Positions 29,597 to 64,000 of a stretch of 64,000 nucleotides of DNA are shown piece by piece. How positions within the stretch are numbered: the first letter of the stretch is position 1; the number at the start of each line of letters is the position of its first letter. Origin of the DNA: Sandaracinaceae bacterium (lineage in GTDB: Bacteria > Myxococcota_A > Polyangia > Polyangiales > Houyiibacteriaceae); the NCBI GenBank assembly GCA_016706685.1, contig JADJJE010000051.1:49667-113666 (forward strand), given 5' to 3'. The notes under the pieces are model-generated. The model worked only from the letters and a program-made list of their open reading frames with translations. It was not told where the DNA came from and searched no databases. Made by a program: the position numbers and the translations under genes.

Positions 29597-29604
<8 letters not shown>

Positions 29605-32185: not shown

Positions 32186-32773
32186 ATGTACTCTTCTGAA
32201 GTGACCACCCATGCCTCCCGCAGCCATCTCGCCGCGGCCCTCGCGCTCACCTGCCTGAGCGCCCTCACGGCGCAGCCCGCGCGGGCCGACCGCGTCATCG
32301 GGCCCGGACAAGAGGACCATGTCCTCTCTCTGTTCGCGCCTGCGGGCCTCGGGGACGAAGTGGTGACGGGCTATCGCCTGATGGACGTCTCGATTCGCTC
32401 GCGCGAGATCCTCCTGCGCCTCGATCCCACGAGCGTGCCCGGTGCCGCCCCGCGTCCGCTGCAGGTGCGGCTCGTAGCCCTCGATGAACCCCTCGACGGG
32501 GCCGTCGCCTTCGCCGACTCGGAGAGCTTCGCCCTGGTGACCGACGCGCAGCCCAGCGATTCGGAGCGCGCCGCGCTCGAGCAGCTGGTCACGCGCGTGC
32601 GCGAGAACGACGATGGGAGCTTCTGGGTCGAGGTCGCCACGGAGAACGGTGCGTCCGAGGGCATGGGCAGCGCAGCCCTGCCGTACCTCGCGGCGCTCGC
32701 GGCCGTCGTGGCCGTGGTGGTGGTCACGGTCGTCGTGCGCCGCAAGCGCAAGCGCTCCAGCGCCGTCGAGTGA
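32186..32773 (+). CDS. hypothetical secreted protein with a C-terminal membrane anchor
   Basis: ATG at 32186. Signal peptide ...LTCLSALTAQPARA-D. C-terminal TM LPYLAALAAVVAVVVVTVVV followed by RRKRKR. The upstream part of the 30608-32773 ORF is antisense to the efflux genes. Confidence 0.55.
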   Translation: MYSSEVTTHASRSHLAAALALTCLSALTAQPARADRVIGPGQEDHVLSLFAPAGLGDEVVTGYRLMDVSIRSREILLRLDPTSVPGAAPRPLQVRLVALDEPLDGAVAFADSESFALVTDAQPSDSERAALEQLVTRVRENDDGSFWVEVATENGASEGMGSAALPYLAALAAVVAVVVVTVVVRRKRKRSSAVE

Positions 32774-33130: not shown

Positions 33131-33300
33131 CCCCGCGTGCTCTCTCGAGACGCCACCGTGGAGGGGGACGGGCGCCCTGGGCAGCGGGGCTTGGGGGGGC
33201 CCTATTTCAAGCGTCCGCAGGACGCGCCGAAATGGGGGAGGTCAACCAGAGGGAGCGCCTGCGCGACCGCCCCCGCAGACCAGGGTGCCCGTCGCACTCC
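33131..33300 (+). repeat. copy B of the ~156-nt intergenic repeat
   Basis: 33146-33300 matches the reverse complement of 20204-20359 (146 of 156 columns). The 14-bp long-range helix is 33167-33180 with 33280-33293. It ends ~55 nt upstream of the GTG at 33354. Confidence 0.85.
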
Positions 33301-33353
33301 CATCGATCACGCCCCCAGAGACGCCCGCCACCCGCGTGTGGTAAGCAACTCCT

Positions 33354-33523
33354 GTGATCCCCGCCCCGCCCGGTACCGACTCGATTCGGAACGACCTCGC
33401 CCGCCTCGTCGCCGGCGGCAAAGCGTCTAGCTCGGACCCCGACCGCGTGGCCTACGCCCGCGACCTCTGGCCGCGCCACCAGATCGCCACCCGCGCCGGC
33501 AACCCTGCCGTGGCGCCCCCGCG
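33354..33523 (+). pseudogene. N-terminal segment of the FAD-linked oxidase, in a different frame from the body of the gene
   Basis: The frame from GTG 33354 reads ...DPDRVAYARDLWPRHQIATRAGNPAVAPP, the expected N-terminus of AGPS/GlcD-type oxidases. The sense continues only in the frame that opens at 33524 (VIVWPSNTEELSSVIAYAAARSIPVVPYGAGSG). Confidence 0.65.
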
Positions 33524-33595
33524 GTCATTGTCTGGCCCAGCAACACCGAAGAGCTCTCGTCCGTCATCGCCTACGCAGCGGCCCGCAGCATCCCG

Positions 33596-34933
33596 GTGGT
33601 CCCCTATGGCGCCGGCAGCGGTGTATGCGGCGGCGTGCTGCCCACCACCGACACCGTGCTCATCGACATGAAGATGATGCGCTCCCTAAAGACCATCGAC
33701 CGCGCGCGCCTCACCTGCGACGCGGACGCGGGCATGATCGGCCAGCACCTCGAGGACGACCTCGGCGCGGCCGGCTTCACACTCGGGCACTTCCCCAGCA
33801 GCATCTACTGCTCCACGCTGGGCGGCTGGGTGGCGGGACGCTCCGCCGGGCAGTGCTCGGGGCGCTACGGCAAGATCGAGGACATGGTGCTGGGCCTCAC
33901 CGTGGTGGACGGCACCGGCCGCGTGCTGCGCGCCGAGCGCGGCGGCGACAACAGCGCGCTCCTGCCGCTGTTCATCGGCAGCGAGGGCATCCTGGGCGTG
34001 GTCACCGAGGCGCGTCTGCGCATCGCCCCGGCGCCTCCCTGCCGGCGCTTCGCGAGCTACCTCTTCCCCAGCACCGAGACCGGCCTCGATGCCATCCGGC
34101 GCATCTACCAGGCGGGCCTGCGACCGGCCGTGGCGCGCTTGTACGACCCGTTCGACTCCATGATTGCCCGGCGCGGTGGCCTGCGCACCGAGCACGAAGC
34201 CGAGCCCAAGCCCAAGCGCACGGAGGCCAAGCCGGGCCTCGGCCTGCGCGCGCTGGTGCAGGCGCTGCGGGCGCCCGGCATGCTGAACGAGCTCATCGAC
34301 CGCGTGCCCGACAAGACCATGGGCGGCGCCAAGCTCATCTTGGTGTGGGAGGCCGACCCGCTCATCGCCGACGCGGAGCTGCGCGAGGCGCGCGCCATCT
34401 GCAGCCGGTACGACGCGCAGGACACGGGCGAGGGGCCCGCCAAGCACTGGCTCGGGCACCGCCACAGCGTGAGCTACCGCCAGTCGCCCCTGTTCACGGC
34501 CGGCGCCTTCATTGACACCATGGAGGTGGCCGCCACCTGGTCGCGCTTGCTGCCCATGTACCACGCGGTGCGCTCCGCCCTCTCACCGCACGTGTTCGTC
34601 ATGGCGCACTTCAGCCACGCGTACCCGGATGGCGCCTCCATCTACTTCACCTTCGCTGGCGCGGCGCGTGACGACCACGCCTGCGAGCTGGCCTACGACC
34701 GCGCTTGGAAGGCTGCGCTGAAGGCGGTGGTCGCGGCGGGCGGCACGCTCAGCCACCACCACGGCGTGGGCCGCAGCAAGGCGCCCGCCATGCGCAGCGA
34801 GCAGGGCAACGCCATCGACGTGGTGCGCGAGCTCAAGCGCGTGATGGACCCGAAGGGCATCTTCAACCGCGGGGCGTTGATCCCCGACCTGGACGAGCAC
34901 ACCCCGCTCGGTCCCGTGGCGGAGGCCGAGTGA
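33596..34933 (+). CDS. FAD-linked oxidase, alkyl-dihydroxyacetonephosphate-synthase-like (GlcD/PCMH family); the ORF as called lacks its N-terminus
   Basis: 445-aa track ORF from GTG 33596. VVPYGAGSGVCGG (FAD_binding_4), GHFPSSIYCSTLGGWVAGRSAGQCSGRYGKIEDMVLGLTVV (AGPS-like) and a C-terminal FAD-oxidase_C region (...GGTLSHHHGVGRSK). The homologous sense extends upstream to 33524 and then to 33354 in another frame. Confidence 0.85.
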   Translation: MVPYGAGSGVCGGVLPTTDTVLIDMKMMRSLKTIDRARLTCDADAGMIGQHLEDDLGAAGFTLGHFPSSIYCSTLGGWVAGRSAGQCSGRYGKIEDMVLGLTVVDGTGRVLRAERGGDNSALLPLFIGSEGILGVVTEARLRIAPAPPCRRFASYLFPSTETGLDAIRRIYQAGLRPAVARLYDPFDSMIARRGGLRTEHEAEPKPKRTEAKPGLGLRALVQALRAPGMLNELIDRVPDKTMGGAKLILVWEADPLIADAELREARAICSRYDAQDTGEGPAKHWLGHRHSVSYRQSPLFTAGAFIDTMEVAATWSRLLPMYHAVRSALSPHVFVMAHFSHAYPDGASIYFTFAGAARDDHACELAYDRAWKAALKAVVAAGGTLSHHHGVGRSKAPAMRSEQGNAIDVVRELKRVMDPKGIFNRGALIPDLDEHTPLGPVAEAE

Positions 34934-35835
34934 TGAGCACCGACCTGCGAGCCGACTTCCTGCGCGCCGTGCGGCGTGACCTCCCGGGCGCGCTGCAAGA
35001 AGCCGATGGCGGCGCCGTGATCCTGCCGGGCAGCCGCGACCAAGTGGCCCTCGCTCTCCAGCTGGCGCACCAGTACCGCCAGCCGCTGCGCACGCCCGGG
35101 CAGCCGGCGCGCGCGGGGGCCATCGTGGTGGACCTGCTGCGCATGATGGACGTCATCAAGTTCGACGAGCCCAGCCGCATCGCGCACGTGCAGGCCGGCA
35201 TGCGCGTGCACGCGCTCGAAGACGAGCTGCGGCGGCGCGGGCTCTCGCTGGGCGCGCACTCGTCGGCGCGCGACTACGGCGTGGGCGAGTGGCTGGCCAT
35301 CGGTGCCCCGGGCGCGCGCGACAACGCGGACGACCCGGTGGACCAGATCGTGGCGGGCCTCGAGGTGGTGCTGCCCGACGGCCGCGAGGTACAGATTCGC
35401 CCGGCGCCGCGGCGCGCGGTGGGTCCCGACCTGGTGGCGGCCTTCATCGGTGCGCGCGGGCGGTTGGGCGTCATCGTGGGCGCCCACGTGGTGGCGCGGC
35501 TGCGCGTGGAGAGCACCGCGGTGGGCTACCTGTTCCCCACGCGGCAGGGCGCCGAGCAGGCGCTGGCGTGGATCCGCGGCAAGGGCGTGCGGCCCATCCG
35601 GGCCTACGTGCAAGACGTGGCCGAGGGCTCGGCGCTGCGCCTCAAGCTGGCCACCGGTGATGGCGTGGCGGCCGCCTGCCGCGAGGTGGCGCGCGTCACG
35701 GCCCAAGAGCTGGGCGGCGTGCTGATCGACGAGAAGATGGAGCTGCCCAAGGCGCGTGCTCCGCTGGGCGTGCCCCCGTCGGCCATCGTCGCCGAGCTGG
35801 CGGCGCGCCTCGACCCGCGCGGGGTCCTGGGCTGA
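34933..35835 (+). CDS. FAD-binding PCMH-type domain protein (GlcE-like, short)
   Basis: The ATG overlaps the upstream TGA (TGATG). 300 aa. The pattern ...AVILPGSRDQVALALQLA...VVDLLRMMDVIKFDEPSRIAHVQAGMRVHALEDELRRRGLSLG...GEWLA...RDNADDPVDQIVAGLEVVLPDGREV is typical of the FAD_binding_4 fold. Confidence 0.75.
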   Translation: MSTDLRADFLRAVRRDLPGALQEADGGAVILPGSRDQVALALQLAHQYRQPLRTPGQPARAGAIVVDLLRMMDVIKFDEPSRIAHVQAGMRVHALEDELRRRGLSLGAHSSARDYGVGEWLAIGAPGARDNADDPVDQIVAGLEVVLPDGREVQIRPAPRRAVGPDLVAAFIGARGRLGVIVGAHVVARLRVESTAVGYLFPTRQGAEQALAWIRGKGVRPIRAYVQDVAEGSALRLKLATGDGVAAACREVARVTAQELGGVLIDEKMELPKARAPLGVPPSAIVAELAARLDPRGVLG

Positions 35836-35837
35836 CC

Positions 35838-38800
35838 ATGCGGAGGTCCTCTGCGCTGCCCCGGCTGCTGCTCGTGTTGCTGAGCGCGCTGGGCACGGCG
35901 AACCTGCAGGCGTGCGCCGAGACGCCGCCCATCAACCGCGTGGGCACCAACGTGGTGGACAAGGGCGTGTTCGAGGGCAGCTGGTACTTCTCCCGCACCG
36001 TGGTGGGCGTGGACTACGAGGGCGGCGGGCTCGGCACGTTCCCGGGCGACAGCGCCATCGACTACGCGGGCAGCGACCTGGCGGCCATGCCGCGCATCCG
36101 CTGGGTGATCGACGAGAGTCTGCTGGTGGCCTACCGCGACTACGAGCTGCTCGAGGGCGGCAACCCCGTGGGCGGCCCCAGCGCGGAGGCCGACTTCGGG
36201 CAGCCCGTGGCGGCGTATCGGATCGAGAAGCACTTCGACATCCGGCGGGCCTACAACCCGTCCACGGGCGAAGAGCAGAACGTCATCGAAGAGAACGACA
36301 CCGACCGTCCGTGGTCCGAGCGCCAGTACATGCGCGTGGACTGGTCCAAGAACCTGCTCACGGGGTACTACGCGCAGAGCGCCAGCCTGGCCGAGCTGCT
36401 GGGCCTCTTCGAGCGGCAGTCGGCCGACCTCTTCGTGCAGGCGGGGAGCCGCTTCCCGGACGCGTTCCTGCCGCGTTTCTCGGTCATGGCGTGTGACGGC
36501 CGCGACGACGACGACCCGGCCTGCACCGCCGAGCACCGCCCGCACGCGGACGACTACCCGCGCGACCAGCTCTACCACTTCTCGTTCGTCACGCAGGACT
36601 TGATGTCGCCGGGGGACGTGGAGGACCTGTTCACCGATGCGACGGTCAACTGGTGTACCTCGGCCTACGTGGACGCGCCCACATGCACCACCACCGCGGT
36701 CTACGTGCGCAACGCCTTCCTGCGCGTGAGCGACACGCGCCAGTACGAGCCGCAGCAGTGGTCGGACCGGCGCTTCGAGCGGGCCGGCTTCTTTCGGCTC
36801 GAGCGCCCCACGCTGGACCGCAGCACCGCGCCCGACGACCCCGCGCTGGGTGAGTCGGACTTCCGCAACCACAACATCAACCGCCTGAACCTGTGGCGTC
36901 GGACACGCGACGCCGACGGCCGGCTGCTGCCCTATGCGCAGCGCGAGGTCCGCCCGGTGGTCTATCACACCAGCCCCGAGCTGCCGGCGCACCTGGTGGA
37001 GCCCAGCTTCGAGCTGGTGGGCCGCTGGAACGAGAGCTTCATGGGCATGGTGCGGCACCTGCGCGAGGAGCCCGAGGCGCTGTACCCCGAGGTGTCTTGC
37101 CAGCGGCTGGACCCCGACGTGTACTGCTACTGCGTGACCGACCCGGAGGACGCCACGCTGCTCAACCCCACCTGCCCGGGGCGCTACGACCCGTTCGAGA
37201 CGCCGGCCCAGGCACGCGCGCGCGGCGCGGTGAACCCCTACGACTGCCACGTGGAGCTCCCGCCGCGGGTGCAGCCCAACCTGGACGACCCGTCGCTCGG
37301 CAACGCCGACTTCTTCGGCTGGTTCGGCGCGCGCCAGGTGGGCAGCGAGTGCGTGCTGCAGCTCGAGGTCAACACCTGCAACGAGCGCAGCATCGCGGAG
37401 AACGGCGGCACCACCGAGGGCCTCGCCTGCCAGGAGCGCGGCGACATGCGCTACCGCTTCCTGAGCTACGTGGACCAGCCCGGCACGCCCTTCCTGGGCA
37501 TCGCCACGCTGCGCGGCGACCCGGTCACGGGCGAGCTCTTGGTGGGCGACGCCAACGTGGGCGGCCCGGCGCTGGACCTCTACCGCACCACGGCGCTCCA
37601 GACGGTGGACCTGGTCACGGGCAACATCACCGACGCGCGCTTCACACAGGGCGAGGACGTGCGCCAGTACCTCGAGAACCTGGGCAACGTGGAGCTTCCG
37701 GCGCGCCCGCGCGTCGACTTCAGCGTGGCGGCGGCCGCGGGGACTGCGGCGCCGGCCGACCTCGCCGCAGTGGACAACGTGATGGCACGCTTCGCCGACC
37801 GCGCCGCGCAGCTGGCCGGGCCCGGAGGGCGCAGCCAGACGTTCGTGGACCGCCGGGCGGACCTCGTGGGCGGCGAGTCCGAGGCCCTGCTCACGCGCAA
37901 CCTCGAGGTGCTCATGATGAGCGGCGCGGACGTGCTGCCGCCGGGCGTCACCCCCGAAGACCTGAGCGAGGCGCAGCTGGACCGCGTGTCGCCGCTGCGC
38001 TCGACCGCGCACGAGCAGCTCCGGCGGCACCGCGAACTCGAGAACGCGGCGTCGAGCCACAACGTGATGCTGCCCAACAGCTACGTGGACACGTCGGTCA
38101 CGGAGTTTGCGTTGCGCCACCGCAACTGGCCGCGCGCGCGCCTCGAGATCGCGGTGAACCGGCTGCTTTACTACCAGACCATGTTGCACGAGCTGGGGCA
38201 CTGCCTGGGGCTGCGGCACGACTTCGGGGCCAGCGCCGACACGGGCAACTACGACGACGCCTACTACCAGATCGCGGCGCGCACCCCGCTGCCCTCGCCC
38301 GAGGCGTTCGACCTCGACGGCACGCTGGGCCTCGCGCCGAACGAGCAGCTGGCGTTCGAGAACGCGCTCGACCTGGTGATGTCGCGGCGCGAGCTGGCCG
38401 GCATCGACCGCTTCATGGACTCGTCGGTCATGGAGTACACGGCGCAGTGGTACGAGCGCACCGACACCACCATCGGTCGCTACGACCACGCGGCGCTGCA
38501 CCTGGGCTACGGCGACCTGGTGGAGATCTACGCCAACGACGCCGGGCGCCCGGTGACCAGCCTGACCCCCGTGAACACCGCGCGGGTGTGGGCGCAGTGG
38601 TACGAGGGCGGCGAGCCCTGCGAGAGCGACGCGGACTGCCCCTACTCCACCACGGGGGAGTCGGCGGCGCTGCTGCGCGACGTGAACCGCGCGAGCGGCG
38701 CCACCCAGCGCTGCGTGGCGCACCCCAACGGCGAGGCCGCCTTCGGGCGCATCTGCAGCGCGTTCGAGGACGACCTGCTGGACGCCACCCTCGCGGCGGG

Positions 38801-40166
38801 GCCCACGGCGCCCTTCGCCCCCGTGGACTACCGCTTCTGCTCCGACGAGCGCGTGGGCACGCTGGGCTGGTGTCACCGCTTCGACGAAGGCGACAGCTAC
38901 CGCGCCGTGGTGCGCAACGTGGCCGAGCAGTACGAGCGCGAGTACCTCTTCACCAACTTCCGCCGCTACCGCGCCGACTTCCGCGTGGGCAGCTACGTCT
39001 TCGATCGCCTGGTGGGCCGGCACTTCACCATCCTCCAGGACGTCTTCCAGAACCTGCTGTACCGCTACACCAGCGAGCCCGAGTTCCGCAGCGAGCAGGG
39101 CGCCTTCGGCTTCTACGACCAGTTCATGGCCACGGCCGACTCGCTCAACTTCTATGCGCGCGTGCTGTCCCAGCCCGACATCGGCAGCTACGAGTTCGAG
39201 GACACCACGTTGAGCTACCGGCGCGTGAGCGCGAACCCCAACGTTGCGGGCGCCGACCTGCGGGTGGACCTGGGCCTCGGCCGCCACCTGAGCTCCAGCT
39301 ACCAGCGGGGCCTCACGGGCATCACGCGGCTCGAGCGCATCGGGAGCTTCTACGACAAGTGGTACGCGATGCAGATGCTCACGCAGCGCGGCTGGACCGC
39401 GGGCTACGGCACCGACGTGCCCTTCTGGACCAACTGGTACGACTTGTTCCCGCTGGAGATGCAGCAGATCCTGCAAGGGCTCATCCAGGACCAGCCGGGC
39501 ACGCTGGCCCCGCGCCTGGCCTGCACCAGCCAGAACGGGCGCCAGTGCAACGGCCCACGCATGCTGTACATGGACCTCTACCGCGGGGACTGCAGCAGCG
39601 CCGCCACCTGCCGGCCCGACCCGGTGAGCGAGACCTACGACGGCTTCGCCTACGTGAACGGCGGCAGCTCGATCACGCTGCAATTCCTGGCGGCGGTCTT
39701 CGCGCTCACCGACCTGCCGGTGTTCTTCGACACCAGCTTCCTCAGCCAGATGTTCCTGTGCGTGGAGGGCCAGGGCGACTGCACCACGCCGAGCCCCGCG
39801 GCCGTCGAGGGCACCGACTACGCGCGCTACACCTCGCTACGGCTCAACAAGTCGTTCCTCGCGTTCCAGGTGTCGCCCGGCAGCACGGTCATCAACCAGA
39901 CCAGCATCGCGTTCTCCATGGTGTCCGAGGCGCGCGACGCCAGCATCGTGCTCGAGCTGCTGAACAAGCTCGCGGACGGGGACACACTCACCATCGCCGA
40001 GCTGCAGCTGCTGGCCGACCTCGAGTACCTGCCGCCCACCACGGTGGCGGCGCTCAACACCGAGATCGCGCGCTTCGAGGGGCGCCTGGCCGACCTCGAG
40101 TCCTTCTTCTTCCAGCTGATCCAGCTCGAGCGCGAGCTGGGCGTCAGCAGCTACCCGGGGTTCTGA
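35838..40166 (+). CDS. giant metzincin-type zinc metalloprotease lipoprotein (DUF4953-like catalytic motif)
   Basis: 1442 aa with lipobox (LGTANLQA-C). HELGHCLGLRH at nt 38187-38219 is HExxHxxGxxH, followed by DFGAS as in 'Met-zincin' DUF4953 proteins. Collinear paralog of the next gene. Confidence 0.85.
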   Translation: MRRSSALPRLLLVLLSALGTANLQACAETPPINRVGTNVVDKGVFEGSWYFSRTVVGVDYEGGGLGTFPGDSAIDYAGSDLAAMPRIRWVIDESLLVAYRDYELLEGGNPVGGPSAEADFGQPVAAYRIEKHFDIRRAYNPSTGEEQNVIEENDTDRPWSERQYMRVDWSKNLLTGYYAQSASLAELLGLFERQSADLFVQAGSRFPDAFLPRFSVMACDGRDDDDPACTAEHRPHADDYPRDQLYHFSFVTQDLMSPGDVEDLFTDATVNWCTSAYVDAPTCTTTAVYVRNAFLRVSDTRQYEPQQWSDRRFERAGFFRLERPTLDRSTAPDDPALGESDFRNHNINRLNLWRRTRDADGRLLPYAQREVRPVVYHTSPELPAHLVEPSFELVGRWNESFMGMVRHLREEPEALYPEVSCQRLDPDVYCYCVTDPEDATLLNPTCPGRYDPFETPAQARARGAVNPYDCHVELPPRVQPNLDDPSLGNADFFGWFGARQVGSECVLQLEVNTCNERSIAENGGTTEGLACQERGDMRYRFLSYVDQPGTPFLGIATLRGDPVTGELLVGDANVGGPALDLYRTTALQTVDLVTGNITDARFTQGEDVRQYLENLGNVELPARPRVDFSVAAAAGTAAPADLAAVDNVMARFADRAAQLAGPGGRSQTFVDRRADLVGGESEALLTRNLEVLMMSGADVLPPGVTPEDLSEAQLDRVSPLRSTAHEQLRRHRELENAASSHNVMLPNSYVDTSVTEFALRHRNWPRARLEIAVNRLLYYQTMLHELGHCLGLRHDFGASADTGNYDDAYYQIAARTPLPSPEAFDLDGTLGLAPNEQLAFENALDLVMSRRELAGIDRFMDSSVMEYTAQWYERTDTTIGRYDHAALHLGYGDLVEIYANDAGRPVTSLTPVNTARVWAQWYEGGEPCESDADCPYSTTGESAALLRDVNRASGATQRCVAHPNGEAAFGRICSAFEDDLLDATLAAGPTAPFAPVDYRFCSDERVGTLGWCHRFDEGDSYRAVVRNVAEQYEREYLFTNFRRYRADFRVGSYVFDRLVGRHFTILQDVFQNLLYRYTSEPEFRSEQGAFGFYDQFMATADSLNFYARVLSQPDIGSYEFEDTTLSYRRVSANPNVAGADLRVDLGLGRHLSSSYQRGLTGITRLERIGSFYDKWYAMQMLTQRGWTAGYGTDVPFWTNWYDLFPLEMQQILQGLIQDQPGTLAPRLACTSQNGRQCNGPRMLYMDLYRGDCSSAATCRPDPVSETYDGFAYVNGGSSITLQFLAAVFALTDLPVFFDTSFLSQMFLCVEGQGDCTTPSPAAVEGTDYARYTSLRLNKSFLAFQVSPGSTVINQTSIAFSMVSEARDASIVLELLNKLADGDTLTIAELQLLADLEYLPPTTVAALNTEIARFEGRLADLESFFFQLIQLERELGVSSYPGF

Positions 40167-43100
40167 GTGGACCGTCGCCGCTTCGCACACACCGCGCTCG
40201 TGTTGGCCGCTCTGCTGAGTGCGCTGGCCCTCGTGGGCTGCGGCCGCCCTGACACGGTGAACCGCGTGCAGCCCAACTTCGTGGACAAGGGCCTGTTCGA
40301 GGGCGAGTGGTGGATGACCCAGACCGCCATCGACGTGGGCGCCGACGTGGGTGGCGTGACGTGGTCGGGGGACTCGGGCTTCGCGGACCTGGGGCTCGAC
40401 GCGGGTGAGTCTCCGTCGCTCGCGCGCATCCGCTGGGTCATCGACGAGGACACGCTCTTCGCGTTCCGCGCCTACGAGCTGGTGCGCGGCAGCAACACGG
40501 GCGGCGACGCCGACGACTACCGCGGGCAGCCCATCGCGGCCTACCGCATCGAGTCGCACTTCGACATCCGGCGCGAGTACAACTCCGTCACGGGGGAGCC
40601 GCTCAACGTGATCGTGGAGAACACGGACGACCAGCGCTGGTTCGACCAGCCGTACATGCGCGTGGACTGGTCGCGGAACCTGATCCGCTCGTTCTACTTC
40701 GCGAGCGAGCAGCCCGCCTTCGGCACGCACACGCTCGAGAGCGCCGGCATCGACGTGCAGGACGGCAGCGAGGGCTTCCCGCGCAGCTATGCACCGCAGT
40801 TCGTGACGGTGGGCAGCGACCCGGGCTACCGCTTCGCGCACGAGTGGCCCGCCGGGAGCGAGGACGTCACGCACTACTTCAGCTTCGTGACGGTCATGAA
40901 CCTGACGCCCGGGAGCGCCTGCCTCGACAGCAACAACGTGCCCTGCAGCGTGCTGCGCGTGCCCTACCGCACCGCGTTCCTGCGCGTGCCGCCGCAACAC
41001 GAGTACGCCGTGGCGGCGCAGGCCCACCCCGAGTTCGACCGCTTCGGGACCTTCCGCTCCATGCAGCGCACGTATGCGCGCGGCAGCCTCCCGCGCGAGA
41101 CGCTGGGTGACTTCTGCGCCAGCAACGCGGACTGCGGCGCCGGGGGCTTCTGCGACACGGAGGCGCAGGTGTGCACCGGCGGCATCACCCCGGCCTACGG
41201 CGAGACCGACTTCCTCACGTTCTACCGCCCACGCCACAACTTCTACCGCGACCCGCTGGGCGACCAGGAGTGCGTGGCCGACTGGCAGTGCGACGGCCGC
41301 TACCCGAGCGCCCCCGGCGTGCCCGGCAGCGTGTGTGACCGCGCCGCGCGGCGCTGCTCGCGGCCCGTGGTGGAGCGCGAGACCCAGCAGGTGACCTACC
41401 ACCTGAACGCGGGCTTCCCGAAGCACCTGGTGGGCGCGGCCTTCGAGGTGGTGGGCAACTGGAACGAAGCGCTGATGCGCGGGCAGCGCACTGCCGTGAG
41501 CGCGGCCTTGCCCGACTACGCCGCCGTGGACGAGGCCTGTCAGGAGAGCGACCCCACGCGCTACTGCTTCTGCGGGTCGGCCGAGGAGCGCGACGGAACG
41601 TGCCCGGGGCGCTACGACCCGTTCGTGAGCCCCGACGCCTACGCGGCGCGCGGCGTGAGCGACCCGTACCGCTGCCACGTGGAGAACGCGGAGTGGACCG
41701 AGCCGAGCGCGCCCACGAGCTACGACGCGTACCCGCTGCCCGAGGCCTACCGCTTCCGCTTCGTGGGCGACGAGTGCCTCTTGGTGCTGGCCACCAACGG
41801 CTGCGACTGGGAGCGCACCGACGCGCGCGTGGCTTGTGAAGACGTGCTGGACGCGGAGGGCGAGCCCGTGCCGTGGCAGCCCCTCGGCGACCTGCGCTAC
41901 CAGTTCTTCAACTACGTGGACCAGGTGAACACGCCATTTGGCGGCGTGGCGGCGCCGCTCGCAGACCCCACCACGGGCGAGCTGATCAGCGCCAACGCGA
42001 GCTTCTCGGCCGCGGGGGTGGAGGCGGCCGCCACCACCGCCATCGAGCTGTTCCCGGCGCTGCGCTGCGCCGCGCCCGCGGGCTGCGAGCCGGGCGAAGA
42101 GGGCGCCGAGGAGCGCTACCTCACCGGCGAGAACCTGCGCGGCTACTTCGCGCGCCTGGGCCGCATCCGTCATCCCGTGAGCGTGGCCTCGTCGGCGGGC
42201 GACGGCTTCACGGTGGACGACCCGTCACGCCCCGCGCTGCCGTGGGCGGGCCTCCCGGTGGACGCGCTGGCCGCCGTGCAGGGCGCCGTCGCGCGCGTGG
42301 AGCAGCGCGTGGACCGCCTGCGCGGCACCGATGGACGCACGCAGGTGCGCAGCGACCGCCTGCGCTCGCTGGCCGGCACGCGCTTCGAGAGCGGCATCCT
42401 CGGGGCTCTCGGCAGCAGCGGCGTGGACGCGCTCCAGCGCGCCTTCGACCTGGGCACGCTGTCGCCCACGGGCACCACGGGCCCCACCGACGCCACGCCA
42501 GCCGACGTGCTGGACCCCGCCGTGCTGAACGCGCTGAGCCCGTTCCGGGGCCACGGGCCCGATGTCTTCGCGCCCGAAGAGGCCTATCTGCGGCAGCTGG
42601 AGCGGCACCACATGTGCCCCGTGAACGCCGCGCTCTTGCGCTCGCGCTACTGGGAGTACTGGGCCGAGGCCTTCCGGGGGCGCAGCACCGCCGAGGCGTC
42701 CATCCGCATGCAGCAGCTCTACGCGCGCATGGTGCAGCACCACGAGCTGGGCCACAGCCTGGGCCTGCGGCACAACTTCGCGGCCAGCCTCGACCGCGAC
42801 CACTACGGCGACGGCTGGTTCCGGGTGGCCTTCGGCGACGACGCCACCAGCGGCGACGAGCTCTTGCTGCCGCGCTACGCGGACTTCGACGCCACCGGCA
42901 ACGGCGGCGACGGAGACGGCTTCGTAGGCCCGGGCGAAGTGGAGCGCTACCTCGCCGAGCTGCGCCGCGTGCGCAACGAGCGAGCGGCACGCGGGGCCCA
43001 CAACCACAGCAGCAGCTCCACCATGGACTACAGCGGCGACACGGGTGACGCGCAGGGCCTCGGGCGCTACGACGTGGCGGCCGTGGTGTGGAACTACTTC

Positions 43101-44792
43101 GACATGGTGGAGGGCTTCGTGGGCGACGCCGAGGTGTCGGCGAACGACTCGTCCGACCGCTTGCGGCGCAGCGACGTGACCCCGCGCGTGTGGTTCCGCA
43201 GCTACGCCGGCGGCGACGCCTGCCGCGTGGACGGAGACTGCCCCGCGTCGGCCGAGAGCAGCGCGCTGGGCGACCAGCCCATCACGCAGCGCTGCGTGCG
43301 CAACACCCGCGAGGTGCCGCTGCAGCTGCCGTGCGCCGGCGCCACGGCCTGCGTGTGCTCGAGCTTCGACGCCGACTTCCAGGACTACGTGGACGGTGCA
43401 GCGTACGACTCGGACGAAGACGGAGACGGCGAGCCCGACTTCACGCCGGTGCGCTACCTGTTCTGCGCCGACGAGCGCACCGACGACATCAGCTGGTGCA
43501 CGCGCTACGACGCGGGCGAGTCGTTCCAGGAGAGCATCGACCACGCGCGGCGCAGCTGGCTCGAGAGCTACGGGCCCACCTACTACCGTCGCTTCCGGCG
43601 CGGGGGAGCGCGCTCCGGAGGCGCCACCGGCGCCATCATCGACGCCGCCAAGATCTACCAGCACCTCTTCTTCCGCCTCAACTTCGAGCCGGGCTTCCGC
43701 AGCAACAGCGGACCGCTGGGCCTCGAGGACCAGTTCTACGCGTCGGTGGACGCCATGAACTGGTTCACCGAGCTGGTGAACTTGCCGGACGTGGGCAGCT
43801 ACGCGCTCGACCCGGACACACAGACCTACGCGCGCATCGCGAGCGAGCCGGACGCGCCGGGCGCCGACTTCAGCCTGCTGCCCGGCCAGGGCTTCGGCGT
43901 CTACACCGAGTTCCAAGAAGGCTACTTCGGCTTCTTCCGGCCGGAGCGCGCCGGGGTGCTGGTGGACAAGTTCGTGGCGCTCGAGGCGCTGGCGCAGCGC
44001 GACTGGGGCCTGAGCTTCGACCCCGACGAGCGCTACTTCATCAACTTCTTCGACCTGTTCCCGGTGGAGATGACCGAGCTCTTCGGCGGCCTGGTCATCG
44101 ACGACCCGCGCTGGTTCGCGCCGCGCGTGAGCTTCGACGCCGGCGAGCCCGTGATCGAGAACCTGAGCTGGTACCGCGGGACGGTGCTGGGGGACTGCAG
44201 CCCGTCCACGGGCACCGCGTTGCTGTGCCGAGCCAGCCAAGAGGTCACCTACCCCACGCCGCCGCTCGAGGGCACCAGCAACCTCTTGCTGCGCAGCTGG
44301 GCGGCCATCCTCGCGCTCTCGCAGTTCCCGGTGTTCTTCGACACCACCTTCGAGCAGCGCCTGCAGATCTTCCGCGTGGGCAGCGGCGTGGGCTTCACCA
44401 TCCCGAACGTGCAGCAGGACAGCAGCACCACCTGCGCGCTGGGTGCCGCCGTGCCGGGCTCCGCCCACGTGGTGGTGGACGCCGTGCCCATGGACGGCTG
44501 CGACACGCCCGAGGACGCCGACTACGTCATCTTCGACTCGCGCCGGCTGCGTGTGCGCTACGTGGCGGTCAAGGTCCGTCCGCTCACGTCCTACAACCTC
44601 GAGGAGGAGCAGCTGGGCTTCCAGTTGCTGCTGCGCGCCATCGAAGCCCAGGAGCGGGTCATCGCGCTCGAGGCCATGGGTCCCAGCACGGAGCTCACGC
44701 GGGCGCGCCAGGCGCTCGAGGCCGAGGAGAGCTTCCTCCAGTATCTGATCGACCTGCAGGGGCGCTATGGCATCAGCAACACCTTCTTCTGA
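40167..44792 (+). CDS. giant metzincin-type zinc metalloprotease lipoprotein, paralog
   Basis: GTG immediately follows the upstream TGA. 1541 aa with lipobox (LALVG-C). HELGHSLGLRH at nt 42741-42773. The N-terminus is collinear with the previous protein (NRV..N.VDKG.FEG.W......RIRWVIDE..L.A.R.YEL..G....QP.AAYRIE.HFDIRR.YN..TGE..NVI.EN..D). Confidence 0.85.
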   Translation: MDRRRFAHTALVLAALLSALALVGCGRPDTVNRVQPNFVDKGLFEGEWWMTQTAIDVGADVGGVTWSGDSGFADLGLDAGESPSLARIRWVIDEDTLFAFRAYELVRGSNTGGDADDYRGQPIAAYRIESHFDIRREYNSVTGEPLNVIVENTDDQRWFDQPYMRVDWSRNLIRSFYFASEQPAFGTHTLESAGIDVQDGSEGFPRSYAPQFVTVGSDPGYRFAHEWPAGSEDVTHYFSFVTVMNLTPGSACLDSNNVPCSVLRVPYRTAFLRVPPQHEYAVAAQAHPEFDRFGTFRSMQRTYARGSLPRETLGDFCASNADCGAGGFCDTEAQVCTGGITPAYGETDFLTFYRPRHNFYRDPLGDQECVADWQCDGRYPSAPGVPGSVCDRAARRCSRPVVERETQQVTYHLNAGFPKHLVGAAFEVVGNWNEALMRGQRTAVSAALPDYAAVDEACQESDPTRYCFCGSAEERDGTCPGRYDPFVSPDAYAARGVSDPYRCHVENAEWTEPSAPTSYDAYPLPEAYRFRFVGDECLLVLATNGCDWERTDARVACEDVLDAEGEPVPWQPLGDLRYQFFNYVDQVNTPFGGVAAPLADPTTGELISANASFSAAGVEAAATTAIELFPALRCAAPAGCEPGEEGAEERYLTGENLRGYFARLGRIRHPVSVASSAGDGFTVDDPSRPALPWAGLPVDALAAVQGAVARVEQRVDRLRGTDGRTQVRSDRLRSLAGTRFESGILGALGSSGVDALQRAFDLGTLSPTGTTGPTDATPADVLDPAVLNALSPFRGHGPDVFAPEEAYLRQLERHHMCPVNAALLRSRYWEYWAEAFRGRSTAEASIRMQQLYARMVQHHELGHSLGLRHNFAASLDRDHYGDGWFRVAFGDDATSGDELLLPRYADFDATGNGGDGDGFVGPGEVERYLAELRRVRNERAARGAHNHSSSSTMDYSGDTGDAQGLGRYDVAAVVWNYFDMVEGFVGDAEVSANDSSDRLRRSDVTPRVWFRSYAGGDACRVDGDCPASAESSALGDQPITQRCVRNTREVPLQLPCAGATACVCSSFDADFQDYVDGAAYDSDEDGDGEPDFTPVRYLFCADERTDDISWCTRYDAGESFQESIDHARRSWLESYGPTYYRRFRRGGARSGGATGAIIDAAKIYQHLFFRLNFEPGFRSNSGPLGLEDQFYASVDAMNWFTELVNLPDVGSYALDPDTQTYARIASEPDAPGADFSLLPGQGFGVYTEFQEGYFGFFRPERAGVLVDKFVALEALAQRDWGLSFDPDERYFINFFDLFPVEMTELFGGLVIDDPRWFAPRVSFDAGEPVIENLSWYRGTVLGDCSPSTGTALLCRASQEVTYPTPPLEGTSNLLLRSWAAILALSQFPVFFDTTFEQRLQIFRVGSGVGFTIPNVQQDSSTTCALGAAVPGSAHVVVDAVPMDGCDTPEDADYVIFDSRRLRVRYVAVKVRPLTSYNLEEEQLGFQLLLRAIEAQERVIALEAMGPSTELTRARQALEAEESFLQYLIDLQGRYGISNTFF

Positions 44793-45915
44793 CGCGCGCT
44801 ACGACGTGTGGCTGCTGCGGGTCGACGACCCGGCCGGCGCGATGGACGCGCTCAGCGTGGCGCTGGCAGACCGGGTGCGCGCGCGCGAGGCGGTGATGTC
44901 CACACCCGCCATGCTGGTGCATGGCGCCACCGCCTCCGAGGTGGAGGCGCTGCGCGCGCAGCTCGCGCCGCACGGGGTCATGCTGGACGGGCGGCCTTCG
45001 CGGCGGGCGGCGGTGGCGGCCAACGTTCCCAGCAGCTCCGCGTCGCTAGCCTCCGGGGCTACCGCCTTGCCGTTCGCCACCGCCGGTGCAGCCCTCGCGA
45101 GCGACGCCGAGCTCGGCGTGGCCAAGGTGTCCTACCACGCGGCGCTCGTGGCCGCGCCCGCCTACGTGCTGCAGCCCACGGCGCTCTTGGCCATCGCGGT
45201 GCTCACGGTGCTCACGGTGGCGTCGTCGTTCGGCGCGCTGACCGGGTCCATCATGGTGGCGCTCGGCGCGCCGCTCGCGGTCTCCGGCCTGCGCTTCAGC
45301 GTGTTCGCGCTGATCGTGCGGCGCAGCCGAGCCGGGCAGACCGACCTGCGCCTCGGGGACGACGAGCAAGACCCCTTCGGGCTGCTGTTCGCGGGCGTGC
45401 GCTTCGTCTTCGTGACGCTCGCGGCGTTCGCGCCCTTCCTGCTGGTCAGCTGGTCGGCCATGCCCCAGGTGGTGGGCTACCTGCTGCCCTACGAGACGGG
45501 CGTGACCACCGCCGACTTCGTGCTGTCGGCGCTGCTGCTGTCGCTCACGTTCCTCTTCCCGCTGGTGGCGCTGCCCGGCGCCTACGCCGCCACGGCGCTC
45601 GGCACGGGTTGCTCGGGCGTGAACCCCATCGTCGGCTTGATCGTGGCGCGGCGCATCCCCGGGCCCTACTTCCTGACGCTGGGCTACCTGACGGCCTTCT
45701 GGTTCGCGAGCGCCGCGCTCATGAGCGGCGGCATGCTGGCCGTCTTCTCGAGCGCCGCCGCCTCGGCCGCGGGCAAGGACGGGGTCGCCGGCGCGCTCGT
45801 GTCGCTGGTGCTGGTCACGGGGGTCATGACGGTGATGGACGTGACCTCCACGCTCATCTCGGCGCGCGTGCTGGGCCTCTTGACGTTCCACTACCGCGAG
45901 GAGCTCGGGCTGTGA
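44767..45915 (+). CDS. polytopic membrane protein with a soluble N-terminal domain
   Basis: 382 aa. The first ~80 aa are soluble (YDVWLLRVDDPAGAMDALSVALADRV...ASEVEALRAQLAPHGVMLDG), followed by about 7 hydrophobic segments. Overlaps the upstream gene by 26 nt if this ATG is used. Confidence 0.65.
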   Translation: MASATPSSDARYDVWLLRVDDPAGAMDALSVALADRVRAREAVMSTPAMLVHGATASEVEALRAQLAPHGVMLDGRPSRRAAVAANVPSSSASLASGATALPFATAGAALASDAELGVAKVSYHAALVAAPAYVLQPTALLAIAVLTVLTVASSFGALTGSIMVALGAPLAVSGLRFSVFALIVRRSRAGQTDLRLGDDEQDPFGLLFAGVRFVFVTLAAFAPFLLVSWSAMPQVVGYLLPYETGVTTADFVLSALLLSLTFLFPLVALPGAYAATALGTGCSGVNPIVGLIVARRIPGPYFLTLGYLTAFWFASAALMSGGMLAVFSSAAASAAGKDGVAGALVSLVLVTGVMTVMDVTSTLISARVLGLLTFHYREELGL

Positions 45916-46547
45916 GCGATCCCTTCGACTACCGGGACCCAGCCGGGCTCGAGCTGGAGCTGGATCTCCCGGCCACACCCAGCCCGCGAGCCGCCGCCCG
46001 CCCTGCGCCACGGCCAGATGAGCTCCCCGGGTTGCCCGACGAATTCATGGAGCTGCCGGACGAGCTCACCGCGCCCTTTCCGGAGCCTGCCCCGGGACCG
46101 GTGGCCACCGAGGCGTGGTCGCTCGAGCTCGAGGACATCGCCCCGCCCCCCGCGACGCCCTCCATCGCCACTTCGCCCCGCGCTGCACCCGCGGCTCGCG
46201 CGGCGGCCACGCTGGCCCTGCCGCAGCCCCCGCGGCCACTCGAACCGCCGCCCGCGCGCACGCTCGAGCTGCGCATCGCCCAGTCGGTGGACCGCATGTC
46301 TCCCTTCGCGCGCGGGGGCCTGCTGGCGTTCACCATCGCCGCGATGCTGCTGCTCGCCACCACGGTGCTGATGGCCGGGGTGCGCAGCGCGCTCAGCACC
46401 ATGGAGGAGCTGCGCCAGGCGGGCGCGGCCGCGGCCCCGGTCCCCGCTCCGGCTGCTGCGGGCGAGCGCCGCGACCCCTACGAGGCCTACCGCGTGGACG
46501 ACGTGCTGGAGGTGGACGACGACGGGCGACACGTGCCGCCGCGCTGA
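45912..46547 (+). CDS. Pro/Ala-rich single-pass membrane protein
   Basis: GTG overlaps the upstream stop (GTGA). 211 aa with an acidic/Pro-rich N-terminal half and one TM (GGLLAFTIAAMLLLATTVLMAGV). No family recognised. Confidence 0.5.
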   Translation: MSDPFDYRDPAGLELELDLPATPSPRAAARPAPRPDELPGLPDEFMELPDELTAPFPEPAPGPVATEAWSLELEDIAPPPATPSIATSPRAAPAARAAATLALPQPPRPLEPPPARTLELRIAQSVDRMSPFARGGLLAFTIAAMLLLATTVLMAGVRSALSTMEELRQAGAAAAPVPAPAAAGERRDPYEAYRVDDVLEVDDDGRHVPPR

Positions 46548-46577: not shown

Positions 46578-48047
46578 TCAGTACCACATGCCCGCGCCGA
46601 TGCTGTAGCTCACGTAGTTGCGGGCGCCGTCGAACGTGAACGACAAGCGGAAGTCGAACGGGTCCATCAGCCCGAAGGCGTCCCAGCGAAAGAGCCGCAC
46701 GTCGCACCCGAACGTGGCGTGCAGGCGCGGCGCGAGCTCGTCGCTGCGGGCGGGCTCGAGATACAAGCCGCCGCGCACCTTGAGGCGGTTGGGCCACGGC
46801 TCGAGCTCGGTGCCCAGGCGGAACATGAACGACGCCGACTGCCGGCGGGTGCGGTGCTCTTGGTCGAAGAACGCGTCGAGCCCGATGGAGTCCGGCTTCG
46901 CTCTGCCGAGGAAGATGACGCTGGCCGTGAGCAGGTAGCGCTCGCGCGGCTCGTGGTCGGCCAGCCCGTGCAGGTGCCGCTCGAACGCGTCCTCGAGCTC
47001 GTCGATGCGGTCTTCGGCGGCGTCCAGCTCGGCCTCGCGGCGCTCGCGCTCGGCGGCACGGAATTCGGGGTCGCGCGCGCGCACGCGGAGACGCGGGCAG
47101 GAGAGGCCGCGCTCGGGCTCGGGCTGTTCGGCCGCGGCCAGCTCGCGGCGCACCTGCTCGAGCTCTCGCTCGCACTGCATCATCCGCAGCTCGCGCAGGA
47201 TGGGGCCCTCCACGTCCTTCACTTCGAAGTTGCGCGCGTTCAGCCGGCGGGGCCCGAACTGATAGGCCGCCCCCAGGCGCAGCTCGAAGGGGTTGTGGAA
47301 CCCACTCGGGCGAGGCACCTGCGGCTGCGTGCCGCCCATGGACGATGCGTCGGCGTCCACCCGCGAGTGCACCGGGGTGGCGATGGCCGCGCCCACGCGA
47401 TACGGCCGGTCGGCGGGCATGTAGATGGCGCCCACCTCCACGCCGAAGCCCACGAACGAGAAGAGGTCCAGCGTCAGCGTGTCGCCCATCTCCGTGGACG
47501 CGGAGAGCGTGGCCTGCAGCGTTCGGAGGCCTGCGCCCACCACCAGCTCTCCGTTCCTGAGCGACCACCCGCCGCCCACGTGCGAGCGCGTGGCCAACAC
47601 CGAGACCGAACGCCCGTCGATCTGGGCGTTGTACGTCTCGAGGTGGATGTAGCCGCCGATGCCCACCGGGCCGAACTGCAAGCGCAGGCCCACGTCGAGC
47701 GACAGCTGGCTGCTGACGGCCAGGCCCCCCTGGCCGCTGTTGAAGACGTCGTTGTCGCTGGTGCCGAACGAGATGCTGGGCGACAGCTCCCACTCGAAGA
47801 AGTGGTGCTCGCGCGCGTTGCGCACCGCGTACGCCGCGGGGTTGAAGGGCACGCCGTCGATGCCCTCGGCGAGAGCCACGAAGGCGCCGCCCATGCTGAC
47901 CACGCGGCCCGAGCCGAGCACCGGGATCTCCACGAGGTCCAGCGAGTAGCCCTCGTCCACCAGCTGCGCGCGCGCCGCGGGCGGTGCCACGAGCGCGCCG
48001 AAGAGGCACAGGCCGGCGATCAGTCGCGTCGTCTTCTGCAACGGCAT
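46578..48047 (-). CDS. outer-membrane beta-barrel protein with an internal charged insert
   Basis: 489 aa with signal peptide MPLQKTTRLIAGLCLFGALVAPPAARA-Q. Alternating beta-strand-like segments and a C-terminal aromatic end (...YSIGAGMWY). Residues ~270-370 are a highly charged helical-looking insert. Confidence 0.7.
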   Translation of the reverse strand: MPLQKTTRLIAGLCLFGALVAPPAARAQLVDEGYSLDLVEIPVLGSGRVVSMGGAFVALAEGIDGVPFNPAAYAVRNAREHHFFEWELSPSISFGTSDNDVFNSGQGGLAVSSQLSLDVGLRLQFGPVGIGGYIHLETYNAQIDGRSVSVLATRSHVGGGWSLRNGELVVGAGLRTLQATLSASTEMGDTLTLDLFSFVGFGVEVGAIYMPADRPYRVGAAIATPVHSRVDADASSMGGTQPQVPRPSGFHNPFELRLGAAYQFGPRRLNARNFEVKDVEGPILRELRMMQCERELEQVRRELAAAEQPEPERGLSCPRLRVRARDPEFRAAERERREAELDAAEDRIDELEDAFERHLHGLADHEPRERYLLTASVIFLGRAKPDSIGLDAFFDQEHRTRRQSASFMFRLGTELEPWPNRLKVRGGLYLEPARSDELAPRLHATFGCDVRLFRWDAFGLMDPFDFRLSFTFDGARNYVSYSIGAGMWY

Positions 48048-48483: not shown

Positions 48484-49452
48484 ATGTCACGCCCGCTGCG
48501 CATCCTCTCGGTCCTCTCCCTGTCGCTCCTGCTCACCGGACTCGCCTCGTGCGGTGGCGGTGGCGGTGGAAGCACCGTGGGGGCCGAGGGCTCGGTGCCG
48601 GTCCTGCAGCTGGTGCATCCCAACACGCCCATGGCGTTGCACGTGAACATGGATGGGCTGCGGCGCTCGCCCTACTACCAGGAGCTGCGGGACATGGACA
48701 GCGCGCTGTCCGAGCGCGAGCGACAGAACGTGGGCAAGCTGTTCCAGCTGCTGGACCGCTCGGACCACTTCGTGGTGGGCTTCGATCCCTTCGGCTCCGG
48801 TCCGGATGACACGCTCATCGCGCTGCGGGGGGCTTTCGAGTCGAGCCACCTCGATGTGCTCGACGAGTTCGACGAGCTGGCAACGCACCGCGAGCACGCG
48901 CTCCGCGGCCGCGGCAGCGAATGGACCGTGATCCCCAACGCGGACACGCTCCTGTTCGGGCAGCTGGAGCAGGTGCACGACGGGCTCGACCGGCTGGACG
49001 GCATCTATCCCGCGTCGGGCCCCACCCGCCCCGGCTTTGCCGAAGCGGCCGCGCTCTGCGAGCTGGGCCAGCACGACGTCGGTGCCGTGTGGGTCTTTAC
49101 CGACGAGATGCGGGCAGGTCTCGGCGAGGGTCACGTGGAGCACGTGCTGCATGAGAACGGCGTGAGCGCGGGCATGTCGGTCGACCTGCGAGACGGCGTG
49201 CACTTCCGGGGCTTCGTGACCACCAACGACACAGCCGCCGTCCCCGTGCTCGCGCACGCCCTGCAAGAGGCCCTGGGCGAGCTGCCGAGCGAGCCGGTGA
49301 TGGTGGCGCTGGGCCTGACCGCCATCCTGGAACAGGTGCAGATCACCGAGGAAGGCACCACTCTCCGCGTGGAGCTGCGCGCCACGGACGACCAGGTGCG
49401 AGGGGTGATCTCCAATTTCCAGCAGTTCCTGCAGTCCAGCCCCCAGAACTGA
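48484..49452 (+). CDS. hypothetical lipoprotein (tandem paralog 1)
   Basis: ATG at 48484: MSRPLRILSVLSLSLLLTGLAS-CGGGGGGS (lipobox plus Gly linker). Aligns over its full length with 49504-50463. Confidence 0.7.
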   Translation: MSRPLRILSVLSLSLLLTGLASCGGGGGGSTVGAEGSVPVLQLVHPNTPMALHVNMDGLRRSPYYQELRDMDSALSERERQNVGKLFQLLDRSDHFVVGFDPFGSGPDDTLIALRGAFESSHLDVLDEFDELATHREHALRGRGSEWTVIPNADTLLFGQLEQVHDGLDRLDGIYPASGPTRPGFAEAAALCELGQHDVGAVWVFTDEMRAGLGEGHVEHVLHENGVSAGMSVDLRDGVHFRGFVTTNDTAAVPVLAHALQEALGELPSEPVMVALGLTAILEQVQITEEGTTLRVELRATDDQVRGVISNFQQFLQSSPQN

Positions 49453-49503
49453 AGGGCCAACTCCCCCATGCAGGGGCCGGGTGGGGCTGATATCTTCCCG
49501 GCC

Positions 49504-62174: not shown

Positions 62175-64000
<1,826 letters not shown>

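Follow-up and report, generated by a model that had tools for sequence, protein, structure and literature searches.

A tandem pair of giant metzincin-like lipoproteins within a probable, clade-specific six-gene operon of Sandaracinaceae

In a stretch of 64,000 nucleotides from a Sandaracinaceae bacterium (GenBank assembly GCA_016706685.1, contig JADJJE010000051.1, positions 49,667 to 113,666; hereafter the window, with positions counted from its first letter), six closely spaced genes on the plus strand, here called O1 to O6, lie between positions 33354 and 46547. The conserved and uncharacterised entity in this cluster is O3-O4, a tandem pair of genes for giant metzincin-like lipoproteins. 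On sequence evidence the cluster is best read as three units brought together recently, and we favour, with moderate confidence, the interpretation that it is a clade-specific probable operon in which three independent two-gene units stand side by side and only O3-O4, a protease pair, is a conserved system. The G+C content of the window is about 71% overall and 66-75% throughout, and the closest homologs of its large proteins are found in metagenome-assembled genomes (MAGs) of Sandaracinaceae and Polyangiales (Myxococcota), which indicates a myxobacterial chromosome.

Conservation of the pair and of its neighbours

A profile of O3 orthologs was scanned against 185,579 genomes, one per species; 70 loci were fetched with 10-kb flanks and two more were added by exact-protein look-up. 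Gene calling relied on a codon model for which the window served as training set; the products were then clustered and the gene orders read. Upstream neighbours were counted where a locus extends at least 2.6 kb to that side (43 loci), and downstream neighbours where it extends at least 1.9 kb (47 loci).

Besides the window, 51 loci contain complete copies of both the upstream gene of the pair (A, O3 in the window) and the downstream gene (B, O4), and in every one of them the two are neighbours on one strand, with A before B. All 51 are Myxococcota-type MAGs, assigned to Polyangiales, Sandaracinaceae or unclassified 'delta proteobacteria'. The gap between the two genes is -4, -1 or 0 nucleotides in 10 of 54 pairs and at most 17 nucleotides in about half of them. 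Over about 1450 amino acids the orthologs are 45-60% identical: A copies reach these values with O3 and about 30% with O4, and the B copies show the reverse, from which it follows that the duplication predates the sampled radiation.

The remaining four genes follow another pattern. O1 and O2 are found upstream of the pair in one of 43 loci (L071), and O5 and O6 downstream of it in two of 47 (L001 and L071); these two loci are the nearest relatives of the window, with 82-85% identity in O3. The first-pass annotation of this DNA had proposed that all six genes form one module, to be given up if their homologs were not co-localised in other genomes. Outside the closest relatives they are not, so that beyond this clade the six-gene module does not survive the test which the annotation had set for it. 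The same annotation had stated that no described system has this architecture; nothing published was found that contradicts it, but what is new here is a young juxtaposition and not a conserved system.

In the commonest locus, gltX, a gene for a CPBP-like membrane protein and a GT2 gene on the minus strand are followed by two M16 peptidase genes, by a member of an unannotated family that we call C5, and by A and B. After B come the genes for E1alpha, E1beta and E2 of a 2-oxoacid dehydrogenase and then, on the opposite strand, a gene for a GlcD-like oxidase that binds flavin adenine dinucleotide (FAD). Most of the neighbourhood around the pair looks like housekeeping synteny. The recurrent downstream FAD oxidase was considered as a possible ortholog of O1 and ruled out, being about 25% identical to it and carrying the GlcD-type EHG motif in all 20 copies, and lying moreover on the opposite strand, 3-5 kb downstream, beyond the 2-oxoacid dehydrogenase genes; HHH stands in place of EHG in three copies of the window clade.

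Sequence features of O3 and O4

O3 (35838-40166, 1442 amino acids, paralog A) and O4 (40167-44792, 1541 amino acids, paralog B) are paralogs that can be aligned end to end at 31% identity. The zinc motif is HELGHCLGLRH in O3 (residues 784-794, nucleotides 38187-38219) and HELGHSLGLRH in O4 (residues 859-869, nucleotides 42741-42773). About 70-80 residues after this HExxHxxGxxH motif, both proteins carry the sequence SS(V/T)M(E/D)Y, a Met-turn that reads SSVMEY in O3 (residues 862-867, nucleotides 38421-38438) and SSTMDY in O4 (residues 950-955, nucleotides 43014-43031). The zinc motif is present in 107 of 108 copies (53 of 54 for A, all 54 for B), and in an alignment of 18 sequences (A1) H784, E785, H788 and H794 are invariant, as are S863, M865 and Y867 of the Met-turn. 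Judged by the two marks of metzincin sequences, HExxHxxGxxH/D and a Met-turn after the third ligand, both O3 and O4 would therefore be metzincin-like. Their scores with the Pfam family PF16313 (Met-zincin, DUF4953) are 28.2 and 31.9 bits, with a gathering threshold of 24.2.

The O3 signal peptide ends in GTANLQAC, with a non-canonical Q at position -2, and that of O4 in ALALVGC, with the lipobox LVGC. The Cys after the signal peptide (C26 in O3, C25 in O4) is invariant in 18 of 18 orthologs, with the consensus GCG, and a lipobox regular expression matches 35 of 54 A and 41 of 54 B copies, whose start calls are approximate. From signal peptide and lipobox, O3 and O4 are predicted to be bacterial lipoproteins. 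O3 contains 26 Cys and O4 contains 34, and about 25 further Cys are invariant in the alignment of 18 sequences. The description of two lipoproteins of 1442 and 1541 amino acids with HExxHxxGxxH, given by the first-pass annotation, thus held in its sizes, motifs, signal peptides and early Cys.

Models of O3 were made with AlphaFold2 in two parts, residues 26-720 (predicted local distance difference test score, pLDDT, 65) and residues 700-1442 (pLDDT 78; predicted template modelling score, pTM, 0.78). A strand, VVYHT, at about residues 374-378 is followed by a long helix (about 384-408), several strands, the active-site helix with HExxH (about 766-789), the Met-turn (about 862-867) and then a helix, an order that in these models fits a metzincin domain carrying a very large insertion. 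The presumed N-terminal catalytic subdomain (VVYHTSPELPAHLV...WNESF, residues ~372-402) stands about 380 residues before HExxH. A search of PDB sequences with the O3 family profile gave 0 matches at E<=1.

The wider family and named relatives

With E<=1e-3 as the limit, a phmmer search with O3 residues 600-1100 against 1.84 billion representatives returned 890 clusters, of which 318 reach E<=1e-10 and 57 reach E<=1e-30; the wider family therefore comprises at least 890 clusters at 50% identity, and many of its members are 1250-1600 amino acids long. Distant relatives, at 20-36% identity, keep the catalytic and zinc-binding residues and share an N-terminal lipobox and the blocks RIRWxIxE, HFDxxRxYN...DRPW, PIVYY...WNxAF, GDLRYN...GPLGYGPS and HEVGHTxGLRHNF...YSSIMDYG. 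Among 34 of them, 32 match PF16313 and no other Pfam family. The few named members are proteins of Myxococcales MAGs labelled 'hypothetical' or 'zinc-dependent metalloprotease' at NCBI. In five metagenome loci (L080, L092, L094, L100 and L104) distant members of the family also stand in tandem pairs, so that the pairing is either very old or recurrent.

With PF16313, the 'zinc-dependent metalloprotease' family of NCBI, which we take to be seeded on the EcxA toxin subunit (the PDB profile search gave no match), O3 and O4 share the zinc site of HExxHxxGLRHNF type followed by SS(V/I/T)M(D/E)Y. They differ from it in the size of 1250-1600 amino acids, the roughly 25 conserved Cys, the tandem paralogs and the C5 partner. 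TIGR03952 (metzin_BF0631, a Bacteroides lipoprotein) has the metzincin motif in common with them, but it is a family of about 350 amino acids which O3 matches weakly (E 4.6e-4, 19 bits against a cut-off of 208) and O4 not at all, and membership of O3 and O4 in it was ruled out. SslE/YghJ is likewise a lipoprotein of about 1500 amino acids with HExxH in its C-terminal half. It is, however, an M60-like gluzincin, exported in Proteobacteria by the type II secretion system, while the motif of O3 and O4 is of metzincin type, with a third His and a Met-turn, and no M60 match was returned for them by Pfam. A literature search on metzincins, myxobacteria and lipoproteins found nothing relevant.

The C5 family

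C5 proteins are 340-520 amino acids long and contain an acidic low-complexity stretch; many have a signal peptide, and most end in Phe. In 19 of 43 genome loci, the most divergent ones included, the gene immediately before A is a C5 gene, and C5 stands upstream in nine metagenome loci too. Examples are L056:8379-9827, L051:8782-9894 and L077:2628-3923, besides about 35 other loci. It often overlaps or is coupled to the metzincin gene (by 4 nucleotides in L077, where the hidden Markov model match has E 7e-21), and it is also found upstream of single-copy distant relatives of the metzincins. No C5 gene is present in the whole 64-kb window. By its position, upstream and often translationally coupled, C5 is analogous to the barrel components of the barrel-plus-lipoprotein systems Slam, SusC/SusD and LptD/LptE, although it matches none of these families. 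In the Slam and SusCD systems, barrel-dependent surface lipoproteins are translationally coupled to the barrel gene.

The O1-O2 flavoenzyme pair

The O1 interval, 33354-34933, is 1580 nucleotides long and not divisible by three, and the list of open reading frames (ORFs) holds two ORFs in different frames for it, 33354-33671 and 33596-34933; the longest intact one begins with GTG at 33596 and encodes 445 amino acids. The nearest long contig, L071 (GCA_020633055.1), has an intact ortholog of 497 amino acids, and alignment with it reveals a deletion of 1 nucleotide at about 33516-33520, where the window reads GCGCC-CCCGCGG and L071 reads GCCCCGCCCGCC. The N-terminal fragment of O1 accordingly occupies 33354-33520, in a frame that stops at 33671, and the main body 33521-34933. 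An intact reading frame, which we expected of a gene for an alkyl-dihydroxyacetonephosphate synthase (AGPS), is thus missing in the window, the deletion being either a sequencing or assembly error or the mark of a pseudogene. Where the first-pass annotation had counted six ORFs, five reading frames were confirmed, but that of O1 is broken and had been read through the frameshift without remark.

The claim that O1 is AGPS-like agrees well with the data. Its Pfam domains are FAD_binding_4 (PF01565, 9e-37) and FAD-oxidase_C (PF02913, 1.5e-35), and the best PDB matches of the intact ortholog are the AGPS structures 2uuu (1e-54) and 4bby (9e-45), whereas glycolate oxidase and D-lactate dehydrogenase reach only about 1e-30. 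O1 contains the motifs ARLYDP (nucleotide 34133), SHAYPDG (nucleotide 34613) and HHHGVG (nucleotide 34754), and its segments ARLYDP, with the Arg, SHAYPDGASIYF, with the Tyr, and LSHHHGVG, with the His-His-His loop, align with their AGPS counterparts. These Arg, Tyr and His residues have catalytic roles in AGPS. By sequence, then, O1 is classed as AGPS-like. O2 (34933-35835, 300 amino acids), described earlier as a second FAD-binding protein, indeed has FAD_binding_4 (1.2e-19), as its sole domain, and would be the partner subunit of O1. By inspection neither O1 nor O2 has a signal peptide, and both are presumably cytoplasmic.

Compared with AGPS (2uuu, 4bby and MXAN_1676 of Myxococcus xanthus), O1 has the same two-domain PCMH architecture, but it is of about 500 amino acids, without the N-terminal extension of the eukaryotic AGPS, and it is paired with the FAD_binding_4-only O2 in a manner reminiscent of GlcD/GlcE. 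The validated AGPS of M. xanthus has FAR/GNPAT gene partners (MXAN_1675-1676; bioRxiv 10.1101/2025.10.10.681575), while no FAR or GNPAT domain was found in the genes of the cluster or in the immediate neighbours scanned. O2 homologs lead to overlapping O1-O2 gene pairs elsewhere in Myxococcota (L073:6671-8900, L074:6404-8885 and L075:6494-8876), which are set among MerR, ribA, prfA and rpmE (L31) genes with no metzincin nearby. Since the overlapping unit is conserved in these other Myxococcota, O1-O2 suggests, by analogy with GlcD/GlcE, a two-subunit AGPS-like enzyme.

O5, O6 and the convergent gene

O5 (44767-45915, 382 amino acids) is a clade-specific membrane protein. Read from a hydropathy scan and a three-way alignment, its N-terminal part is a soluble, conserved domain of about 75 residues, which a low-complexity linker joins to a C-terminal domain that has several hydrophobic segments, roughly six. 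Its N-terminus, MASATPSSDARYD..., is conserved in L001 and L071, which supports the start at 44767, and the N-terminal sequence MASATPSSDARYDVW... is likewise conserved in these two closest relatives. O6 (45912-46547, 211 amino acids) is also clade-specific, Pro-rich (17%) and provided with one transmembrane helix, and the earlier description of a polytopic and a Pro-rich single-pass protein is therefore borne out. Neither protein has a Pfam or NCBIfam match. Only 14 homologs of O5 were found among 5.8e9 clusters, all from the same clade and all at least 42% identical, and O5 can be regarded, from its sequence relatives, as a clade-restricted orphan; among the fetched loci O6 has homologs in L001 and L071 only.

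Downstream of O6 and outside the operon, a putative outer-membrane protein of 489 amino acids is encoded on the minus strand at 46578-48047, with a signal peptide and the C-terminus ...GAGMWY. The first-pass annotation had placed a convergent beta-barrel gene here: the convergent ORF with its signal peptide is real, and a beta-barrel is plausible from the sequence, but the match to PorV/PorQ lies below threshold (E 1.2e-3, 18 bits against a cut-off of 90), and a comparison with PDB sequences gave nothing meaningful. C5 was considered as a homolog of this barrel-like gene and rejected (hhalign probability 0.6%). The ortholog of the convergent ORF is adjacent to the operon in L001, whereas in L071, the relative at 82% identity, three inserted genes, for an alpha/beta hydrolase, a glutathione S-transferase and a SpoIIAA-like protein (L071:20968-23007), lie between O6 and the barrel-like gene, which is therefore not fixed to the operon.

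Gene junctions

All five junctions described by the first-pass annotation were found again in the ORF list and by direct reading of the sequence. O1 and O2 overlap by 1 nucleotide in TGATG at 34931-34935, and 2 nucleotides separate O2 from the ATG of O3 at 35838. The TGA of O3 abuts the GTG of O4 at 40167 with a gap of 0, the ATG of O5 at 44767 lies 26 nucleotides inside O4, which stops at 44792, and O5 and O6 overlap in GTGA at 45912. Operons are commonly tightly spaced, and spacing alone is weak evidence. L071, however, has the identical order with equally tight spacing (a 1-nucleotide overlap, a 2-nucleotide gap, 3, 3 and a 4-nucleotide overlap), which makes co-transcription probable here; and since the gene order is kept in L001 as well as in L071, the six genes are probably one operon within this clade. 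A scan for sigma-70 promoters and terminators detected none within the cluster, a result that carries no information at a G+C content of 71%. A caution follows for similar cases: here tight spacing was by itself no guide to whether the module is conserved.

Interpretation and alternatives

According to the interpretation that we favour, O1-O2 would encode a cytoplasmic flavoenzyme with AGPS-like chemistry that is separate from the rest, with O1 broken or mis-sequenced in the window; O3-O4 would be anciently duplicated giant zinc-metallopeptidase-like lipoproteins; and O5-O6 would be fast-evolving, clade-restricted membrane proteins. O3 and O4 are predicted to be exported and lipidated at the invariant Cys, and they would fold as disulfide-rich extracytoplasmic proteins anchored in the outer membrane. 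There the two would act jointly on proteins of the envelope or outside the cell, and they would probably form a heteromer in which both partners are active proteases of metzincin type. In most other lineages the upstream putative C5 barrel may, by analogy, anchor or expose the pair, while the window clade has O5 and O6 beside it instead; judging by gene position alone, O5-O6 may have replaced or supplemented C5.

Several observations weigh against this interpretation. Neither half-model of O3 has a Foldseek neighbour in the PDB at E<=1e-3, the split at about residues 700-720 having probably cut the catalytic domain. The alignment to PF16313 covers only 23-25 residues at the zinc site, positions ~11-37 of 316, and no literature was found on DUF4953, DUF5117 or PF16313. 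About half of the pair loci, the window included, have no C5 directly upstream, and C5 is thus not obligatory in cis; its putative barrel is called from sequence, the only PDB or Pfam support being a weak match to DUF3187. The heteromer, the outer-membrane location, the exposure at the surface and what C5 does are steps that we infer. Finally, a second and independent adjacency of an AGPS-like gene and a metzincin gene, which a mosaic origin of the cluster has to treat as coincidence, was found in L077, from a Myxococcales MAG (GCA_030696265.1): between positions 981 and 7747 this locus carries on one strand an AGPS-like gene (522 amino acids, motif ITHHHAVG, 30% identical to O1), a C5 homolog and a single metzincin of 1275 amino acids.

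Two independent adjacencies of this kind are more than one would expect by chance, and they speak for the alternative that all six genes are one module, in which cytoplasmic AGPS-like, ether-type lipid chemistry would be linked through O5/O6 to the metzincins of the envelope, with the remodelling of lipids or lipoproteins as one conceivable task. Near-zero spacing at all five junctions and the same order in L001 and L071 would also agree with this. We nevertheless consider it very improbable. O1/O2 are missing in 42 of 43 informative loci and O5/O6 in 45 of 47; other Myxococcota have O1-O2 by itself among another conserved set of genes, and the FAD oxidases that do recur downstream of the pair carry the EHG motif of GlcD and lie on the other strand. 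The reading frame of O1 is interrupted in the window, and the FAR/GNPAT partners of the M. xanthus AGPS are not in the cluster (bioRxiv 10.1101/2025.10.10.681575). A general adjacency of AGPS-like and metzincin genes was looked for and rejected: apart from L077, it was seen neither in the 40-odd other genome loci nor in the other metagenome loci examined, and in the latter no FAD oxidase was found even when C5 and a long upstream flank of several kb were present. A functional link between AGPS and the metzincins is very unlikely, and we give little credence to the broader idea that Myxococcota possess an undescribed envelope machine to which the metzincin pair, C5 and, in two or more independent lineages, a flavoenzyme of AGPS type belong. 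If it were true, cytoplasmic ether-type lipid chemistry would be tied to a heteromeric outer-membrane protease and the six-gene operon would be a real variant of that machine. As it stands, the six-gene arrangement is young and clade-specific and says little on function.

The place and nature of the O3-O4 pair can also be read in other ways. O3 and O4 could be periplasm-facing housekeeping proteases or chaperone-like factors, for instance in the quality control of outer-membrane proteins or lipoproteins, and not degradative enzymes that are secreted or exposed at the surface; C5 would then be a substrate or a mere neighbour and no translocon. The pair is stable and vertically inherited across the fetched loci, it is syntenic with gltX, the M16 pair, the 2-oxoacid dehydrogenase genes E1a/E1b/E2 and the GlcD-like gene, and an identity of 45-60% over some 1450 residues means slow evolution for a surface protein. 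The data do not fix the topology, however, and the many disulfide Cys and the very large size suit extracellular proteins as well; the coupling to a barrel gene, by analogy, resembles that of the barrel-dependent surface lipoproteins of Slam and SusCD. We regard this alternative as possible but rather doubtful. That O3 and O4 are no enzymes at all, but structural or adhesive lipoproteins which retained a zinc motif, would agree with a sole family match of about 25 residues, with the lack of PDB structural neighbours for both half-models and with more than 1200 residues outside any recognisable catalytic core. It appears very unlikely to us, because the Glu, the three His, the Gly and the Ser, Met and Tyr of the Met-turn are essentially invariant in 107 of 108 copies, the same residues are kept in relatives at 20-36% identity, and conservation of the catalytic Glu is unexpected for a degenerate site.

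A conserved protease pair on the cell envelope, as the favoured interpretation would have it, is of interest in itself. Myxobacteria use extracellular and contact-dependent proteolysis and have elaborate envelopes, and the pair is therefore a reasonable target in studies of how the envelope is built, of predation or of the remodelling of the surface. A full structure of O3 or O4 could show the metzincin fold elaborated in a new way.

Repeats and neighbouring genes

The repeat that had been placed at the 5' end of the operon is real. Directly upstream of O1, 33139-33314 is an inverted copy of 20190-20366, and the two are 91% identical over 135 nucleotides and about 93% over the core of the alignment. 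This dispersed, structured intergenic element of about 165-175 nucleotides folds as RNA at -90 kcal/mol (z -2.9) and contains nested hairpins, CCCTATTTC...GAAATGGGG around GCGTCC..GGACGC; a search of Rfam gave no match. It could be an element similar to a miniature inverted-repeat transposable element (MITE) or to a repetitive extragenic palindrome (REP), or a small RNA.

Just upstream of the cluster and divergent from it, genes for a MacB-type permease (MacB_PCD and FtsX) and an adaptor of the HlyD family lie on the minus strand at 29597-32050, and a plus-strand ORF of 195 amino acids (32186-32773) stands between them and the repeat. Downstream, two tandem paralogous genes at 48484-49452 and 49468-50463 encode proteins of 322 and 331 amino acids that have no Pfam or NCBIfam match; the corresponding DNA repeats, D4 and D6, are 75-84% identical, and the two genes are also found downstream in L001. 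Toward its end the window runs into seven copies of a coding repeat (62684-63948) with a period of about 200 nucleotides, recurring TGC (Cys) and GAC (Asp) codons and the core TGCGACGGC.TCGACAACGACTGCGAC.

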